Origin: a virus
DNA length: 64,000 nt
Strand: one strand, 5' to 3'
Virus genome (UHGV): UHGV-0134778
Shown: in pieces, positions 1,959-18,267 of the stretch
Numbering within the stretch: the first letter of the stretch is position 1
How the letters are laid out: each line of letters opens with the position of its first letter
Program-made: the position numbers and the translations under genes
Notes under the pieces: model-generated
Database searches by the model: none
Told to the model about the DNA's origin: nothing
Seen by the model: the letters and a program-made list of their open reading frames with translations, nothing else

Positions 1959-3008
1959 ATGAATTTAACACCTCGCAGAACCATGGTACACGGCATGAAA
2001 GAAAAACAGAACGGTTTCGAACCTATGAGTAATAAAATGTTTGGTATGCCGGGCGGTATCATGGAAACATACAGCTACCCAACACCTGTTGTTGACCACG
2101 TTCTTTATATCGACGATTTGGAAGACTTACAAGACCATATGTCTCGTCTGCAGACGATCCGTATGGCTCAGCCGGAAGAAAGCATTCGGGTGATCATCAA
2201 TAGCCCTGGGGGTTGCGTGCACATTGCAATGGCTTATCTGCAGGCATTCCGAGAGTCTCAGGCAAGCGTTGTCGTACACGCTGAAGGGATGTGCTGCTCA
2301 GCAGGAACAATCTTATGGCTGGGTTGCAAAGAACGCACTGTGGCTCCGGACACAGAATTTATGTTCCACTACTATCAAGGTGGCACTTATGGTAACGGTG
2401 TGAACATGAATACTCAGGTCAGCTACTGGAAAAAACGTTTTGAACGCCTGATTGAAAAATACTACGGTGGGGTGCTGACAGAAGATGAGATCGCATCCAT
2501 CACAGCTGGCGGTGAAGTGTGGTTGGATGGAGAAGAGCTGGCATCTAGAACTGGTGCTATCATCTTGGACGATGAAAACATTCAGCGCATTCAGAATGGA
2601 CAGAAACCGAAAAAGCTTTTGGCAAAAAGAGATGAAGAAGGTGTGTTAGGTGAGGCAGGCCTTCCAGAGATTCACCAATGCACATCTTTGGACGAGCTGG
2701 TTCATGCTGTTGAGTCTGCAAAAGAAAATGGTATGAAAGGTGATGTTCACACTGTGTTCCTGAATCTACAGATGGAGAGTGGTGAGACCGTTAAGATTGC
2801 ACTAGGTGAGATTACCTCGGAAGATCTGCAGCGATTCTCTGTGGTAGAGCTTCAGGACATTTTGTCCCAATTGAAAACTACCCTGAACGGAGGTGAAGAA
2901 GTTCAGGTGAAAGATAAGACTCGCAAGCGTCTGGTGGACAATATTATTAAAACAGCAAAAGAGCTTAATGAAAAAATCCTGGGCGCAGGAATTGTCGAAG
3001 AAGCTTAA
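1959..3008 (+). CDS. ClpP-like (S14 family) serine peptidase with C-terminal extension
   Basis: INSPGG...GMCCSAGT...MFHYY aligns with the ClpP motifs INSPGG / GxAASMG / MIHQP (Ser and His in place). RBS AAGGA; terminator at 3022-3046. Confidence 0.7.
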   Translation: MNLTPRRTMVHGMKEKQNGFEPMSNKMFGMPGGIMETYSYPTPVVDHVLYIDDLEDLQDHMSRLQTIRMAQPEESIRVIINSPGGCVHIAMAYLQAFRESQASVVVHAEGMCCSAGTILWLGCKERTVAPDTEFMFHYYQGGTYGNGVNMNTQVSYWKKRFERLIEKYYGGVLTEDEIASITAGGEVWLDGEELASRTGAIILDDENIQRIQNGQKPKKLLAKRDEEGVLGEAGLPEIHQCTSLDELVHAVESAKENGMKGDVHTVFLNLQMESGETVKIALGEITSEDLQRFSVVELQDILSQLKTTLNGGEEVQVKDKTRKRLVDNIIKTAKELNEKILGAGIVEEA

Positions 3009-3021
3009 ACATTAATTCTAA

Positions 3022-9870: not shown

Positions 9871-10140
9871 ATGAAAATTAAATTATTCAAAACTGAGCTG
9901 GCAGACAAAAACTGCGGACTGGTTGAAGGCATGATCGTTGAAGCACAACCAGTTGACTACATGAAGGTGGTTCGTGATGCCCTGGGTGAAGGTTTTGATC
10001 TGATGGAGCCAGCTCTGCGAGAAGATGTCATCGAGATGGCTAAAAAGCACACACCGGAAGGTTTGGTAGTGTTTGTTGCACCAGGTAACGGGGAAGAGTT
10101 GATTGTAACTCCGGATGTGTATGAGGTTGTAGAAGAGTAA
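9871..10140 (+). CDS. small acidic protein, EVVEE-tail paralogue family
   Basis: MKIKLFK... ending ...YEVVEE; RBS GAGGAG. Confidence 0.5.
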   Translation: MKIKLFKTELADKNCGLVEGMIVEAQPVDYMKVVRDALGEGFDLMEPALREDVIEMAKKHTPEGLVVFVAPGNGEELIVTPDVYEVVEE

Positions 10141-11304: not shown

Positions 11305-11565
11305 TTGATGAAGATTAAATTGAAAAACCTTGAAACGGCAGAGATTCAGGAAGGTGTTGATTTCCGTTCTAAAGATGGAGACATCCTAGAGGCGAATGTC
11401 CCGACATATAAGTTGATTAAAGGTTTTGGCAACGTTCCGGAGGAGGATATTACAGACATTCTTATGATGTTGATCCTTGACGGGACTGTGTTTGTAGGTG
11501 AAGGTGAGAACGCTATTGCAATCCCGAGCCATTTTTATGAAGTAGTTGACGAAGAGGTGCTGTAA
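11305..11565 (+). CDS. small acidic protein, EVVEE-tail paralogue family
   Basis: MMKIKLKNL... ending ...YEVVDEEVL; preceded by the palindromic promoter at 11240-11275. Confidence 0.5.
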   Translation: MMKIKLKNLETAEIQEGVDFRSKDGDILEANVPTYKLIKGFGNVPEEDITDILMMLILDGTVFVGEGENAIAIPSHFYEVVDEEVL

Positions 11566-11916
11566 ATGAAAGTAGAGATCACAGGTTTTGATATGAATGC
11601 GGTTCCGGAAGATATTTTAGCTAAACTCCCGGAAGGTTTTGGTAACGGTGTTGTGGTTGATGCTGTTCCTCCTACCAAAGACATCCTGCTGCAGTATGGT
11701 GTGGCAGAGGAAGATGTTGATAAAGTTCTTACAATGATGGCAATCGACCGTGTTGTCGTTGTTAAAGGTCTTGAAGGTTTTGATAACGATCCTCTGATTA
11801 TTCGTGGTGATGACTATCGTATCATCGACAACGAAGGTCAGGGGTTCTACGAACCTTCTGCTGAAGATGTTCTTAACTTACTACTGGAAGCAGGTACCGT
11901 AGAGGAGGCAGAATAA
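11566..11916 (+). CDS. small acidic protein related to the EVVEE family
   Basis: MKVEITGF... ending ...GTVEEAE; start adjacent to upstream stop. Confidence 0.5.
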   Translation: MKVEITGFDMNAVPEDILAKLPEGFGNGVVVDAVPPTKDILLQYGVAEEDVDKVLTMMAIDRVVVVKGLEGFDNDPLIIRGDDYRIIDNEGQGFYEPSAEDVLNLLLEAGTVEEAE

Positions 11917-12245: not shown

Positions 12246-12532
12246 TGAAAGATTTGGTTAAGATCAAGATTAAAGACACCAATGGAGAACTCAGCCATTT
12301 TGGAATTAACGATGGTGACGAGCTGATCGCCCACCTGCCTACCAAGGAAGTTGTAAGCAAAGCGGTTGCCGGAGAAGAAGATGCAATGCAGGCTGCAGGT
12401 GTGGATGAAAACTATGTAGCAATGTGTATGTGCCGAGATCAGGTTGTTCTGTATAAAGCGTATCGACCAAATGGAGCACCTGAGTGGCTTGTTTTCCGAC
12501 CCGAAGGATATGAAATTTTAGAGACGCTATGA
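12245..12532 (+). CDS. hypothetical protein
   Basis: 95 aa; ATGA coupling. Confidence 0.5.
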   Translation: MKDLVKIKIKDTNGELSHFGINDGDELIAHLPTKEVVSKAVAGEEDAMQAAGVDENYVAMCMCRDQVVLYKAYRPNGAPEWLVFRPEGYEILETL

Positions 12533-13320: not shown

Positions 13321-13626
13321 ATGGCTAAATCTAAAGTTGAACTGTTCACCTCTCTGCCTTCTGACACTGCAGAGCGTGATCGCCTCCGTAAAACAATTGA
13401 AGAGCTGGTGGAACTTCAGCTTCAGATTAAAGATCTGAAAGACGCTATCAAGGATATTATTCTTGTAGAGAAACAGGATCACCTGTATTCTCCTAAGTTT
13501 ATCAAGTCATTGGTGGCTACCGAATTCGATATCCGCTATGAAGCTGAAAAACGTCGAGCTAAAATCGAAGAAGAGGTTGAGCACATGTCTGAAGCAGACA
13601 TTCTGTTCAAACGCTCTGCAGAATAA
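13321..13626 (+). CDS. hypothetical coiled-coil protein
   Basis: 101 aa, charged heptad-like sequence; RBS AAGGAGA; strong terminator follows at 13633-13660. Confidence 0.5.
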   Translation: MAKSKVELFTSLPSDTAERDRLRKTIEELVELQLQIKDLKDAIKDIILVEKQDHLYSPKFIKSLVATEFDIRYEAEKRRAKIEEEVEHMSEADILFKRSAE

Positions 13627-14679: not shown

Positions 14680-15009
14680 TAAACACACATGCATCTGAAG
14701 AGACATCCAAAGGAGTGACTATATGTCCCTTGGCTGAGCCAGTGAAAGAGGAAAACTTAGATTCTGAAGATTCTCCATCTTCGCTCCAGGTAGATCCTGA
14801 GGCTGATGACCTAACGTGGGAAGACATCGTAGACATCTGGTTCTCCATTATGCCTGAGCACGAAGAGTTCAGAGGTGGCAGACTATGAAGCACCGAGCCC
14901 ACACAGGTTCCTCATGCTAAAGCATGGCCTGAAGAGGCAAACGTGCATAATTCCTGTGCATTGGAACGTATAAAACCCTGTTCACACTCTCATTTCTAGA
15001 GGAGATTTC

Positions 15010-15225
15010 ATGAAGATAGAAATATTTGGTGGAGCTGACAACACTTGTGGCCTGATTTACCTCGAATTCGATGAATCGTACCTGCCAGAAGTGTTAAACA
15101 TGGATTCTGTTGCTGAGGCTTTGGGAGTAAGTCCTAAAGATCTCTACTCTGGTGCTGAGATTGATGGTTGGGAGGAGACCATGAACATCGATTTCAGTGA
15201 AGTAGGTGATGAACCGCTGGACTGA
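15010..15225 (+). CDS. small acidic protein
   Basis: 71 aa, MKIEIFGG...; RBS AGGAG. Last gene of the rightward block. Confidence 0.5.
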   Translation: MKIEIFGGADNTCGLIYLEFDESYLPEVLNMDSVAEALGVSPKDLYSGAEIDGWEETMNIDFSEVGDEPLD

Positions 15226-15350
15226 CACACAATTAGTTGCCCGGCTAAAGTGCTGGAAGCACCCATAACATCTTCCAACTAAATTTCCTACCAACACAGT
15301 TACTTACCCACCACACATGACTGTTTGCTTGTTTAGTGAGCAGTCATCCC

Positions 15351-15378
15351 TTGACATTCTTGCCTATCTTGATAAAAT
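15351..15378 (+). promoter_or_regulatory. sigma70-type promoter reading into non-coding DNA
   Basis: TTGACA (15351-15356), 16 nt, TAAAAT (15373-15378); no ORF with an RBS in the next ~300 nt. Confidence 0.45.
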
Positions 15379-16671
15379 TAAGTTCTTCTCTTTTCTTTTA
15401 CCGAGTAATTCGGGTTTTCTGTTCTCTTCGGTTTGAAGGGGTATGGAGATACACCTGAGTGAACAGGGTGAACAACCGAACCTTTAGCTATGGCATTAGC
15501 ATGGCGAAGCGGACGGGTGACGAAAGAGGGGCCGGAGGACACCAGTCACTGCCATATAGTATATGGGTGATAACCTGAAGAGTCTGAATAAGTGTTTAAG
15601 TACCAGTCAGAGGAAAAGGTGAATGGTAGCCGAAGGGGGAGGGGGGTTTCTTATATCTTTAATTTGTATACTTTATATACACTTGTAAACCAATTCAATT
15701 AGGATCTGTTTACCACACAAAGTGGATGGAGACAAATATCACCTATTAAACTTGAATTATTTATAGAAAATACCACAACACTACTTAAGTCTTTGATTTT
15801 ACACACAAATCCTACAGATACTCACCCTCCATATTTAACATACTTGTAACATATCCCATACTCTACCTGTCTGATCAATTTACCCAACTACATCCCCATA
15901 TTTTTCCTGTCTGTACTACCCCTGCCCCGCCGGGAGTCCCGTCATATCTGGCTTCCCAGCAAATATCACACCCACAAATATCATTGCCTGAAGAGGGTTT
16001 CATCCCATAATACACACCTTGCCTGAAGAGCGATTCATACACCAACTAAATTTTTTAATTGACCCCTCCCCGCCGCCGGAGAGGTTGGCTTTTCCCACAC
16101 AGGCCTGAAGAGTCAGCCAGAAATATCTGAACAGGCCCAGTTATACCACGATTTTGACATGACCGACAGGAGTGCTACCCTGTCAGGAGCCGGTAGCGAC
16201 TGGAGTGCTGCCAGGCGGACGAAATGGGAATACTTCTCATTCTTATAACAATTCTCAAATATCGAGGCAGTGAGGCAAATTAATAGGTGAGGCCGTTCAC
16301 ACAGTGGCACAACATTTGCAACCTATCTTGTGGGGTGAATGAGAATACCTATCATTGTGAGAATAGTTATCATTACGGGCAATTTAACATAATACCCATT
16401 ATGCGCACCACTGGCGATACATACAGGGATTGATAACATGGGTTACTGTTTACGCACATAACAATTATATTTCTTACTATTTGTGCGGGATATAGTTAGC
16501 AACCAATAGATTAGATATTGACCTGCGGACTTCTGACCGTCCAGACGTCTAAACGCCCACACAACAAGGGTTATACATACATTCCTGAATGTAAACAGGG
16601 CCGCAAAAATGCTACCATACCAGTTTGTAAATTTTTCATGCAGCACTTGACAAAGAGGAGAAAAACTTGTC

Positions 16672-16720
16672 TGACACTTTTGCCACTTTTGACACTTTTA
16701 CCTTTGACACAATATGACAC
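16672..16720. repeat. cluster of four TGACAC boxes
   Basis: TGACAC at 16672, 16690, 16705 and 16715, embedded in repeated CACTTTTGACAC words. Confidence 0.5.
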
Positions 16721-16750
16721 AATAACGGCTGTTACTATTCCATATCTCAC

Positions 16751-16805
16751 TGTTTACGCATAGACTGTTTACGCCTGAATAGTTTACGCCCAAACTGTTT
16801 ACACA
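16751..16805. repeat. four iteron-like direct repeats (C/A)TGTTTAC(G/A)C at 14-16 bp spacing
   Basis: TGTTTACGC at 16751 and 16767, AGTTTACGC at 16781, TGTTTACAC at 16797. Further copies of CTGTTTACG at 16446 and 17267, and inverted at about 16590. Confidence 0.6.
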
Positions 16806-16815
16806 GAGATGATGA

Positions 16816-17109
16816 GCCATGCCATTCGTTTGCATGAAAACAATTAACAAGATAACAATTAACAAGTTAATAATCTTTCGCTGGCTATGCCAGGTGACTA
16901 GGTCACCCCTTCGGGCGTTTATATGACATAATATAAAAGCAGGGCAACTATTAGAAGATCTATAGTTGCCTTGCTTGTTATGTCATGATTAACTAAATAC
17001 AAGGCAACTATGATCTGAGTAATAGATTGCAGAAAAACTATCACGGGGGTGATGGTTACTGCTTTTATATTATGTCGCGACTCCGTCGCGCCATGCCATT
17101 CGTTTGCAT
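16816..17109. repeat. 20-bp direct repeat pair flanking a nested inverted-repeat structure
   Basis: GCCATGCCATTCGTTTGCAT at 16816-16835 and 17090-17109. Inside: 18-bp perfect inverted repeat GACATAATATAAAAGCAG (16926-16943 / 17059-17076) and four copies of GGCAACTAT/ATAGTTGCC. Confidence 0.65.
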
Positions 17110-17722
17110 AGTTGCCTTATTGTTACAGGTAAAATAATTACATTATTAATTATTTCTTATCTTTCTCTTAGTCATCTAATGATTCCAGTCAGTATAGTAA
17201 TGTACAGTAAACATTAGACGACTAAAGATTTCTCTGTTTATGATAACTCATCGTGATAATTTCGGGCTGTTTACGAAAAATGTTGACACCTGAGCTGATT
17301 TATGTTATGCAGTCTACACGAATAATTATTTTATGCAGGTATTGACTATTCCGTTATTCTGTGGTTGGAATAAATACTTTGCAGGCTATAGAATGGCGTG
17401 CGTACGTGAATTCTGAGATCTGGCGGCTATAGTTATACTCGATTTTTCGCGTAGAACACGCTTTAGATGCTGTGTAAGTGTATGACTTATAAAGATTTTT
17501 AGTTGTTGACAAGATATTGGAGATGTGCATCAGGTTAAAATTTGTGCAATAGCGGCATTACGTGCACTTTTGGGAGAGAAAACGGGTAAAAATGGACTTG
17601 CTACCACACAATGAAAAATTATGCAATAGTTATTTTCCATGTATATTTGTACAGTATGTGGGATTGATGGCTAGTCAATTATTCCACTTGCCAGGTAGGG
17701 CCGTTTATGGTAGGAGAAGAGC

Positions 17723-17750
17723 AGACAAAAAGAAAGGGGCCTAAGCCCCT
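17723..17750 (-). terminator. intrinsic terminator closing the leftward gene block
   Basis: Minus strand AGGGGC-TTAG-GCCCCT followed by TTCTTTTTGTCT; lies 20 nt past the stop of 17770..18189. Confidence 0.7.
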
Positions 17751-17769
17751 TGATAATTCAGTTAAAAAA

Positions 17770-18189
17770 TTATAATGATTCGTATATTTCAAAAATCCGA
17801 TTTGCCAGGTCGTTACGGTAGCTGAATTTTTCCTCACGTTTGATCATAAGATCTTTATAGCCGTACTCTTTAAGCACTTCATTAACTTTATGGCGGCATA
17901 CTTTCATATTATCCTGCGCGTCACCAATAAATCTGTTGCTATGGTGCATGGCTTTAATTTCTTCTTCCAGGACCAGGGCAACTATGCGGACCGGATCAAG
18001 CTGATAGGCGGTAACATCCATGCGGCATTGTAAACGGCTTTTTACGTCTGCCACCGGATATACTGCAACCTCTTCCCCGTCAACATTGACAATAATTAGT
18101 TTACCATCGATTTCGAATCCTTTCGCCGCCGGACCGTGACAAAAAGCGTTATCAAAGCTATATGCCGGATTATTAGATTTAATGTTCAT
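17770..18189 (-). CDS. hypothetical protein
   Basis: 139 aa. First gene upstream of the minus-strand terminator at 17723-17750; promoter 18239-18267 and RBS AAGAGG upstream. Confidence 0.55.
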   Translation of the reverse strand: MNIKSNNPAYSFDNAFCHGPAAKGFEIDGKLIIVNVDGEEVAVYPVADVKSRLQCRMDVTAYQLDPVRIVALVLEEEIKAMHHSNRFIGDAQDNMKVCRHKVNEVLKEYGYKDLMIKREEKFSYRNDLANRIFEIYESL

Positions 18190-18238: not shown

Positions 18239-18267
18239 AATATAGCAAAACTGCCGATCCCTGTCAA
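18239..18267 (-). promoter_or_regulatory. sigma70-type promoter
   Basis: Minus strand TTGACA (plus 18262-18267), 17 nt, TATATT (plus 18239-18244). Confidence 0.55.

Follow-up and report, generated by a model that had tools for sequence, protein, structure and literature searches.

The gene-free region at positions 15226-17769 of a 64,000-nt stretch of the virus genome UHGV-0134778 (this whole stretch is referred to as the window) is probably a T7-like concatemer junction, with short exact terminal repeats, putative protein-binding motifs, a predicted terminator block and a separate candidate structured RNA. By sequence match, the source phage belongs to Vequintavirus, the rV5-like myophages of Escherichia coli, and 122 phage records, nearly all of them from this genus, match the region at 90-96% identity, with most leaving it unannotated. 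A gene-free zone at this locus is not a new observation: the rV5 genome paper (Kropinski 2013) displays a grey "non-coding" box between genes 163 and 164, with no function assigned. An earlier note, made from the letters of the window, described the region as a repeat-dense stretch between two converging gene blocks and proposed that it is a genome terminus or packaging site, or else a replication origin. The terminus is supported by the ends of 4 related phages, Gotham, HdK5, bov22_2 and Pr121LW, as well as by 2 published studies.

Several GenBank records start or stop inside the region. The linear record of Gotham (MT682716) contains a 459-bp repeat_region annotated at 1-459 and again at 136567-137025, and this repeat, when aligned to the window, corresponds exactly to 16214-16671, from GGCGGACG to AAAACTTGTC. 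The record of HdK5 (MK373780), determined in a different laboratory, begins at the homolog of 16214 and stops at the homolog of 16671, with identical 459 bp at both ends (first bases GGCGGACG, last AACTTGTC). The bov22_2 record is linearised between 16213 and 16214 and starts with GGCGGACG, whereas that of Pr121LW is linearised between 16671 and 16672, following the position at which Gotham and HdK5 terminate (AACTTGTC, 16671). Based on homology to these 4 independently finished relatives, we place the ends of the virion DNA at 16213/16214 and 16671/16672. The repeat is 457-460 bp long in all 20 genomes compared, with both boundary sequences being invariant (19-20 genomes), and the homologous sequence occurs once in the window. 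In a divergent lineage of related phages, homology with the window resumes exactly at 16213. Termini of the T7 type carry the same sequence at both virion ends, as observed in HdK5 and Gotham, that is, in relatives rather than in this phage itself, and are fixed, as reflected in the identical terminal nucleotides of the independent isolates Gotham, HdK5, bov22_2 and Pr121LW.

The existence of the terminal repeat is already in the literature. Korf et al. 2019 reported "short terminal redundancies of 458 bp" for 2 vequintaviruses, HdK5 and EdH4, and Dias et al. 2020 described one fixed packaging start and a 459-bp repeat for Gotham, while 3 other phages from the same sequencing run, without a region of twofold coverage, were classed as permuted. 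The repeat in the window is the same element, with identical boundaries and a length of 458 bp compared to 458/459 bp in HdK5, EdH4 and Gotham; those papers give the repeat length only. The new elements here are the anatomy of the region at the nucleotide level, the array of CCTGAAGAG words, the occurrence of 2 terminal types and, most notably, a candidate structured RNA. We found no description of the flanking arrays, the conservation pattern, the 2 terminal types or the RNA element in the literature. The features of the region are as follows.

15226-17769, unstranded: the entire gene-free terminal region (presumed concatemer junction), between convergent gene blocks
14928, 15574, 15987, 16022 and 16104 (span 14928-16112), plus strand: five CCTGAAGAG words, all on the same strand
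15351-15378, plus strand: predicted sigma-70 promoter, with TTGACA (15351-15356), a 16-nt spacer and the extended -10 element TGaTAAAAT (15370-15378)
15385-15646, plus strand: candidate structured non-coding RNA of ~260 nt, with G5-A-G6 (15635-15646) at its 3' end
16164-16213, plus strand: the hairpin-forming repeats GACAGGAGTGCTACCCTGTC and CTGGAGTGCTGCCAG, directly adjacent to the left cut
16214-16671, unstranded: direct terminal repeat, 458 bp, between the predicted left (16213/16214) and right (16671/16672) cuts
16672-16723, plus strand: array of TGACAY boxes, its first base directly after the right cut
16749-16805, plus strand: iteron-like array of four (A/C)TGTTTAC(G/A)C units (ACTGTTTACGC) at 15-bp spacing
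16816-17109, unstranded: module bounded by 20-bp direct repeats (16816-16835 and 17090-17109)
16836-16924, unstranded: patch of variable content, made up of small GC-rich hairpin insertions, one of them a 46-nt piece (16876-16919)
16925-17135, unstranded: conserved nested palindrome core, 18-bp arms with A/T tracts
17403-17590, unstranded: conserved non-coding island with the words TGTCAACAACTAwAAATCTTTATAA and GAAAAATCGrGTATAACTATAG, common to the divergent lineage
17734-17751, minus strand: intrinsic terminator closing the leftward gene block, AAGGGGCTTAGGCCCCTT followed by a T-run

The repeats listed in the earlier note are all present, with coordinates off by a few bases at most: the iteron-like array with further copies at 16447 and 17268 and an inverted one at 16590, the four TGACAC boxes, the 20-bp direct repeat, the 18-bp perfect inverted repeat (one base off), the hairpin around a BglII-like core and the four GGCAACTAT/ATAGTTGCC words, as well as the strong terminator of the leftward block (given as 17723-17750). 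The features it emphasized are, however, not the ends themselves, with the iterons and nested inverted repeats lying 77-460 bp rightward of the right cut, and the terminal repeat, the CCTGAAGAG words and the nearly invariant element with its promoter (15351-15646) are not mentioned in it.

The claim that the region is devoid of genes was borne out. When the window was aligned with 18 relatives, the genes flanking the region proved to be intact, with substitution counts of 10/5/34 and 5/6/31 over the 3 codon positions, whereas none of the open reading frames of at least 25 amino acids within 15226-17769 shows codon periodicity and most are broken among the relatives, ruling out hidden small genes. 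A 21-amino acid open reading frame starting at 15623 behind a Shine-Dalgarno-like word was also rejected, because the G-run inside it varies in length among isolates and shifts the frame. ARAGORN detected no tRNA or tmRNA, and searches against Rfam 15 yielded no match at gathering thresholds across the whole window and only chance-level matches at E ≤ 10 over 15100-17900, none of which falls within 15385-15646. In the same alignment, the element at 15351-15646 is the most conserved DNA of the region, and the block containing the iterons and TGACAC boxes the least conserved.

The promoter at the start of this element matches the sigma-70 consensus at 11 of 12 positions, in addition to the TG of the extended -10 motif. 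Its hexamers and TG are retained, with a different spacer sequence, in IMGVR_10279 and in the divergent lineage (TTGCAA-17-TGnTATAAT). Across the 18 relatives, identity over 15400-15650 amounts to 0.97-0.998 per 50-nt bin, compared to 0.89-0.95 in the flanking coding DNA. Throughout the genus, all 118 records match 15385-15649 at 98% identity or more, whereas the adjacent 265 nt of coding DNA are mostly 90-95% identical and reached the search threshold in 97 records only. Two blocks of the element are invariant: CTGAGTGAACAGnGTGAACAnCCGAA at 15455-15480 and, at 15594-15606, the loop GTTTAAGTACCAG. Past the terminal G5-A-G6 run, some isolates carry unrelated sequence. The run itself is of different length among isolates (G5AG5, G5AG6, G6AG6, G7AG6, plus a variant carrying an inserted T), which may reflect either real homopolymer variation or sequencing error.

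A profile search with nhmmer recovered diverged copies of the element (~67% identity, E~1e-22) on metagenomic phage contigs of 120-140 kb. Indels that distinguish these copies from the element in the window are not multiples of 3. When the segments between the conserved anchors were folded independently, the same hairpins were obtained in both lineages, and changes within each lineage fall in loops or are compensatory; for instance, the stem closing the invariant loop occurs as UCUGA/UCAGA, AAUAGCA/UGCUGUU, AAUAACG/CGUUGUU, AAUAGUA/UGCUAUU and AAUAGCG/CGCUGUU. RNAalifold on the raw MAFFT alignment suffered from register problems at the 5' end, and we used segment-wise folding and a covariance-model alignment instead. 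A covariance model that was constructed using only the divergent lineage and then searched against the vequintavirus loci yielded exactly one full-length match per locus (67-77 bits, E ~1e-19 to 1e-22); in the window, it identified 15385-15639 on the plus strand (73 bits, E=3e-21) and nothing else in the 64 kb. In the resulting alignment, 92.1% of the cells are paired, compared to 39-49% when the 3' partners are slid, and 19 of the 48 pairs are altered on both sides, compared to 1-5 in the slid controls, with none of 500 shuffles reaching the observed values. Thus, the element displays the generic features of a structured RNA, namely, compensatory pairs above controls in a non-coding sequence preceded by its own conserved promoter, and we consider 15385-15646 a candidate structured RNA gene predicted to be expressed from this sigma-70 promoter. 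We take the RNA to be stable, non-coding and produced by the host RNA polymerase once that end of the DNA enters the cell.

Scans of viral and metagenomic contigs for further lineages of this RNA revealed only the vequintavirus type and one divergent type; the other genera of Vequintavirinae are not syntenic at this locus and the model found nothing in the 4 loci examined, and a more distant 153-kb phage (L008) is without this layout. The possibility of a hammerhead ribozyme was dismissed: CCUGAAGAG resembles the CUGAnGA core but has no GAAA or stem context, and no Rfam ribozyme matched. Mimicry of a host RNA or origin from a prophage copy was likewise rejected, with no match in 5,426 E. coli genomes or in the GTDB representative genomes. 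In the literature, we found neither a paper describing the element nor a transcriptome for the genus.

The terminal repeat is bordered on both sides by short repeated words. To the left, CCTGAAGAG occurs 5 times in the window compared to 0.57 expected (none of 100 shuffles reaches 5), the last 3 words lying within 230 nt of the left cut and the last one ending 101 nt before it. Three or four copies are found at matching positions, on the plus strand only, in 19 of 20 vequintaviruses, with BP9 retaining 2, and the copies are positionally homologous in the divergent lineage. Several of the words make up the 5' arm and loop of small hairpins. Of the 2 hairpin-forming repeats that abut the cut, the proximal one, CTGGAGTGCTGCCA followed across the cut by GG, is invariant, and the other, 33 nt upstream, is variably present. 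Between the RNA element and the terminal repeat, 2 non-coding islands, 15742-15852 and 15900-16003, are 65-78% identical in the divergent lineage; the latter holds a CCTGAAGAG hairpin, followed in the divergent lineage by a T9 run.

To the right of the repeat, TGACAC boxes start at 16672, 16690, 16705 and 16715, that is, 4 within 52 nt; the first TGACA is invariant, and relatives carry 2 to 9 boxes. Beyond the 4 regularly spaced units, the iteron-like motif is found dispersed at 15706(+), 16447(+), 16590(-) and 17268(+). TGTTTACR is present 13 times in the 64-kb window compared to 4.7 expected, a count that none of 100 shuffles attained, and 6 of the 13 copies are clustered within 830 bp. An inverted unit stands at -81 inside the terminal repeat of all genomes compared. 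The earlier note suggested comparing the iterons across related phages. TGACAY and (C/T)TGTT(T/C)AC arrays are present in every relative compared, whereas their copy number (about 2-9), spacing and sequence vary widely. Due to this variation, the block to the right of the cut has the lowest identity of the region (0.54-0.66 among the 18 relatives). Conservation of the motif in a fluid array fits protein-binding repeats that expand and contract.

The module farther right is a mosaic of labile and conserved DNA. In the patch 16836-16924, alignment occupancy drops to 0.66-0.76, with insertions being present or absent between isolates. One of these, the 46-nt GC-rich hairpin piece (GCTATGCCAGGTGACTAGGTCACCCCTTCGGGCG, 16876-16919), differs in presence even between close isolates. 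Pieces 77-89% identical to it occur at several positions per locus in the divergent lineage (in L038, at 10052-10097, 11534-11579 and 12388-12532), where the surrounding DNA is not alignable with the window, and related GAGACGArGGCTATGC inserts are found in rV5, phita32 and SYGMH1. It is not a multi-copy element of this genome, being single-copy in the window, and behaves like a small mobile or duplicating hairpin cassette. The adjacent core, 16925-17135, is about 98-100% conserved in 17 of the 18 panel genomes, and 119 of 120 records match it at 95% identity or more. It consists of the 18-bp perfect inverted repeat (16925-16942 / 17059-17076), an GGCAACTAT hairpin (arms 16937-16951 / 16962-16976 around an AGATCT core) and the smaller hairpins ATCAC-GGGG-GTGAT (17040-17053) and GCGAC-tcc-GTCGC (17077-17089). 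Four of the 5 GGCAACTAT/ATAGTTGCC words in the window (0.54 expected) are located in 16943-17116. Compared to shuffled sequences, the core folds strongly on both strands (z = -8.8 on the minus and -8.2 on the plus strand), the annotators of Murica mark a terminator in it, and a consensus scan flagged a terminator-like site at 17036-17057 on the plus strand. Arms made of A-tracts and T-tracts that flank hairpins are a layout typical of back-to-back intrinsic terminators, and we loosely hold the core to be a predicted bidirectional terminator or insulator, or else a hairpin element acting at the level of DNA. FV3, a viable phage, has only one copy of the 20-bp direct repeat left and nothing of what lies between the 2 copies, and the core is not present in the divergent lineage. 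In the island at 17403-17590, no convincing promoter was found.

The divergent lineage is otherwise close to the vequintaviruses, with 91% identity in the flanking 139-amino acid protein and 77-89% in the flanking DNA. Its non-coding region is alignable with that of the window only as colinear islands of 65-78% identity, which comprise the RNA element, 15742-15852, about 15900-16003, one starting exactly at 16213 and 17403-17590; the DNA to the left of its cut homolog is unrelated to the window. This pattern looks like 2 co-adapted versions of the same terminal apparatus. The divergent lineage also contains 2 near-tandem DnaA-box words, a full TTATCCACA and TATCCACA (L006, reverse complement), ~380-400 nt after the homolog of the left cut and within its presumed terminal repeat; none are present in the non-coding region of the window.

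The mechanism suggested by this organization would be as follows. In the replicating concatemer, each junction would have a single copy of the 458-bp repeat. A terminase complex would recognise sequences of the junction and cut at 16213/16214, yielding the left end, and at 16671/16672, yielding the right end, with DNA synthesis duplicating the repeat, so that each virion receives a copy at both ends. Judging by the gene map of rV5, the terminase gene is expected outside the window. The CCTGAAGAG words and hairpin repeats on the left and the TGACAY and YTGTTYAC units on the right are most likely sites for the small terminase or an accessory end-processing protein. The palindromic block most likely represents back-to-back terminators that would keep convergent transcription out of the junction, and a host-type promoter ~830 bp to the left of the repeat would drive the structured RNA of ~260 nt.

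Several observations weigh against this reading. The ends of this phage are placed by homology only, and the assignment of the motifs to the terminase is an inference from sequence. Conservation is lowest in the arrays nearest to the right cut, which would be unusual if they were a strict recognition site, though the motif cores persist. Provided that the FV3 assembly is correct, the palindrome core is not essential, because both FV3 and the divergent lineage do without it. As for the RNA, its thermodynamic fold is weak (z = -1.4 on the plus and -0.3 on the minus strand), for which reason we relied on covariation, which in turn derives from 2 deep lineages and a model-fitted alignment; no clear intrinsic terminator was found at the 3' end of the element; and the most invariant block of the element contains 2 inverted iteron cores, GTGAACA at 15459 and 15468, so that part of the conservation could reflect protein binding to DNA. 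Finally, Kropinski 2013 called the rV5 genome circularly permuted, and a 2026 paper concluded, from PhageTerm, headful packaging with partial permutation for the vequintavirus BpE1AUH, assembled from a cocktail. These 2 statements, together with the arbitrary start positions of most GenBank records, speak for an alternative in which there are no fixed ends, the genomes are permuted by headful packaging from a pac site, the "459-bp repeats" are artefacts of assembly or interpretation, and the region is only a pac site or a transcriptional buffer. We consider this very improbable, given that 4 records from 4 groups have the same end nucleotides and 2 of them carry identical repeats at both ends, that Dias 2020 explicitly set Gotham against 3 permuted phages of the same run, that the 2013 claim was built on 3.6-fold Sanger coverage, and that the homology of the divergent lineage breaks exactly at the left cut. 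The nucleotide-exact agreement of the 4 independent records weighs more heavily than the permuted or headful statements.

The repeats could alternatively belong to an iteron-type origin, in which an initiator of the phage or the host would bind YTGTTYAC, melt the AT-rich stretch at 17100-17200 (27% GC) and start replication, with the palindromes assisting in loading of the helicase or primase; such a function could coexist with a terminus. The significant enrichment of the motif, with 4 regular direct repeats and dispersed or inverted copies, the retention of its core in both lineages, the AT-rich troughs at 15700-15800 and 17100-17200, the strong conservation of the palindromic block and the 2 tandem perfect DnaA-box words in the presumed repeat of the divergent lineage are all consistent with this possibility. 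We nevertheless judge it unlikely: 15226-17769 contains no DnaA box with up to 1 mismatch, no initiator gene is recognisable (the 8 flanking small proteins are without a Pfam family), a spacing of 15 bp is not helically phased (not a multiple of about 10.5), the copy number of the array varies (about 2-9) between phages with >90% identity elsewhere, and FV3 is missing the palindromic block. The origin proposed in the earlier note has thus received no positive support, and GC skew, which it suggested as a check, was uninformative as an origin marker, because skew follows gene orientation and the change in skew coincides with the switch in orientation, as was already pointed out for rV5, where the local skew change was tied to the switch in transcription direction (Kropinski 2013). 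A different kind of origin, or a primer for end replication, would be provided by the RNA itself, if the transcript from the promoter at 15351 folded, formed a lasting hybrid via its G5-A-G6 run and, after processing, primed rightward synthesis through the repeat in the manner of ColE1 RNA II, T4 oriF/oriG or the mitochondrial LSP/CSB II primer. Such an R-loop would agree with the strong conserved promoter, the conserved G-runs with which the structured RNA ends (G5AG6, and G5UAG5 in the divergent lineage), the AT-rich DNA immediately downstream (15700-15800, 30% GC), the direction of the RNA, which points to the repeat, and the fact that it is linked to the genome end in both lineages, and RNA-based origins have a phage precedent, according to PMC7157519. 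Yet the proposal is purely an analogy of layout, the G-run differs in length between isolates, and conservation over the entire 260 nt exceeds what a primer seems to need, making it distinctly improbable. Lastly, the arrays might pause or regulate DNA transfer until early products have been made. Phage T5 has such an injection stop signal near its left end, in non-coding DNA rich in repeats and palindromes. The region studied here is also a gene-free zone dense in repeats and palindromes just inside the genome end, and the sole strong host-type promoters near either end drive very small units, the RNA and the 139-amino acid gene (P164). However, none of the literature covered reports two-step transfer in this group, and a role of this kind would be extremely surprising.

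Within the favoured interpretation of the region as a T7-like junction, we lean towards a role of the RNA that is either tied to the genome end, in end replication or packaging, or that of an early trans-acting RNA. More specifically, 15385-15646 might tentatively be regarded as a new class of phage RNA tied to the genome end, which could serve as a cofactor or primer for duplication or processing of the terminal repeat, or for packaging, or else as an immediate-early RNA, transcribed from whichever DNA enters the cell first, that disables a host function or defence. If so, the 2 types of terminal region would be co-evolving sets of RNA, DNA sites and proteins.

Comparison with known systems places the region closest to the junction of T7 and T3, the features of which are reportedly those described by Dunn and Studier in 1983 and in the packaging papers of Chung and Hinkle. 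By these accounts, the systems have in common fixed ends, with a short exact repeat at each end of the virion DNA, a junction that is non-coding, short repeats arrayed immediately outside the terminal repeat, inverted repeats forming hairpins beside one boundary and a promoter reading towards the junction. They differ in the length of the repeat (458 bp compared to a reported 160-230 bp). In addition, the present phage is a myovirus of 137 kb whose gene blocks converge on the junction; its promoters are of the host type, a phage RNA polymerase is not known, its motifs are unrelated in sequence and a candidate structured RNA gene lies in the junction region. As in lambda cos (cosN and the R sites of cosB) and in the pac sites of SPP1 and P22, short repeated words, protein-binding in those phages and putatively so here, lie beside the terminase cut; unlike here, these phages have cohesive ends or headful packaging, and there is no sequence similarity. 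Iteron origins (lambda ori and those of plasmids P1, F and R6K) likewise contain regular direct repeats near AT-rich DNA and palindromes, but the region has no adjacent initiator gene, DnaA box or helical phasing and its copy number is very variable. The pRNA of phi29 resembles the candidate RNA in being a structured RNA of a few hundred nt or less beside a terminus, made by the host polymerase (as predicted here). It differs in that no Rfam family, pRNA included if in Rfam, matched at E ≤ 10, and the ends of phi29 are protein-primed and involve no processing of a terminal repeat; to draw a packaging role of the RNA from this likeness would be pure speculation. ColE1 RNA II, T4 oriF/oriG and mitochondrial CSB II share the layout of promoter, structured RNA, G-run and AT-rich DNA, without sequence homology, and hybrid formation or priming would be suggested here by analogy only.

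Two genes in the vicinity deserve mention. The 101-amino acid protein encoded at 13321-13626 (+) is 99% identical across vequintaviruses and 42-58% identical in phages of the subfamily that infect Klebsiella, Cronobacter, Salmonella, Serratia and Erwinia. It is annotated as "transcriptional regulator" or "double-stranded DNA-binding protein" in some records, has no Pfam match and is a candidate binder of the terminal-region motifs. The 139-amino acid gene at 17770-18189 (-), an accessory early gene located at the left end of the genome, has its own terminator and its own strong sigma-70 promoter at 18239-18267 (-) (P164 in rV5) and is not present in FV3, SYGMH1, JeffSchatz and Gotham; the annotators of Murica noted a "Rel homology domain" in its product, in which Pfam finds nothing. 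About 5.5 kb upstream of the region, rV5_ev158 has an annotated ribosome hibernation promotion factor of the S30AE family in the rightward early block (L001, 191-508). Two observations concern individual database records. In Shigella phage CM1 (MK962749.1, locus 2040-3020), the terminal repeat occurs twice in tandem, with 62 nt between the copies that correspond to the TGACAY-box DNA normally following the right cut; either the junction is truly duplicated or the assembly went wrong at the genome ends. In addition, 19 records named "Campylobacter phage", with Campylobacter jejuni as the host (e.g., MG065646, MG065647 and MG065655), are >90% identical to rV5-like coliphages across the region, and their host labels look doubtful, with contamination or mislabelling as possible explanations.

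Vequintaviruses are frequently encountered in collections of E. coli phages and in therapeutic cocktails, and most of their GenBank records leave these 2.5 kb blank. Ends at 16213/16214 and 16671/16672, as placed here by homology, provide a rational genome start for annotation and comparison and flag the published "circularly permuted" and "headful" statements as needing a re-check. For engineering, the region narrows the candidate cis-elements down to a small set, for instance packaging signals to be used in transducing particles or synthetic genomes. New insight could come above all from the candidate RNA, which is near-invariant, predicted to be driven by its own promoter, more conserved than the adjacent genes and without known relatives.

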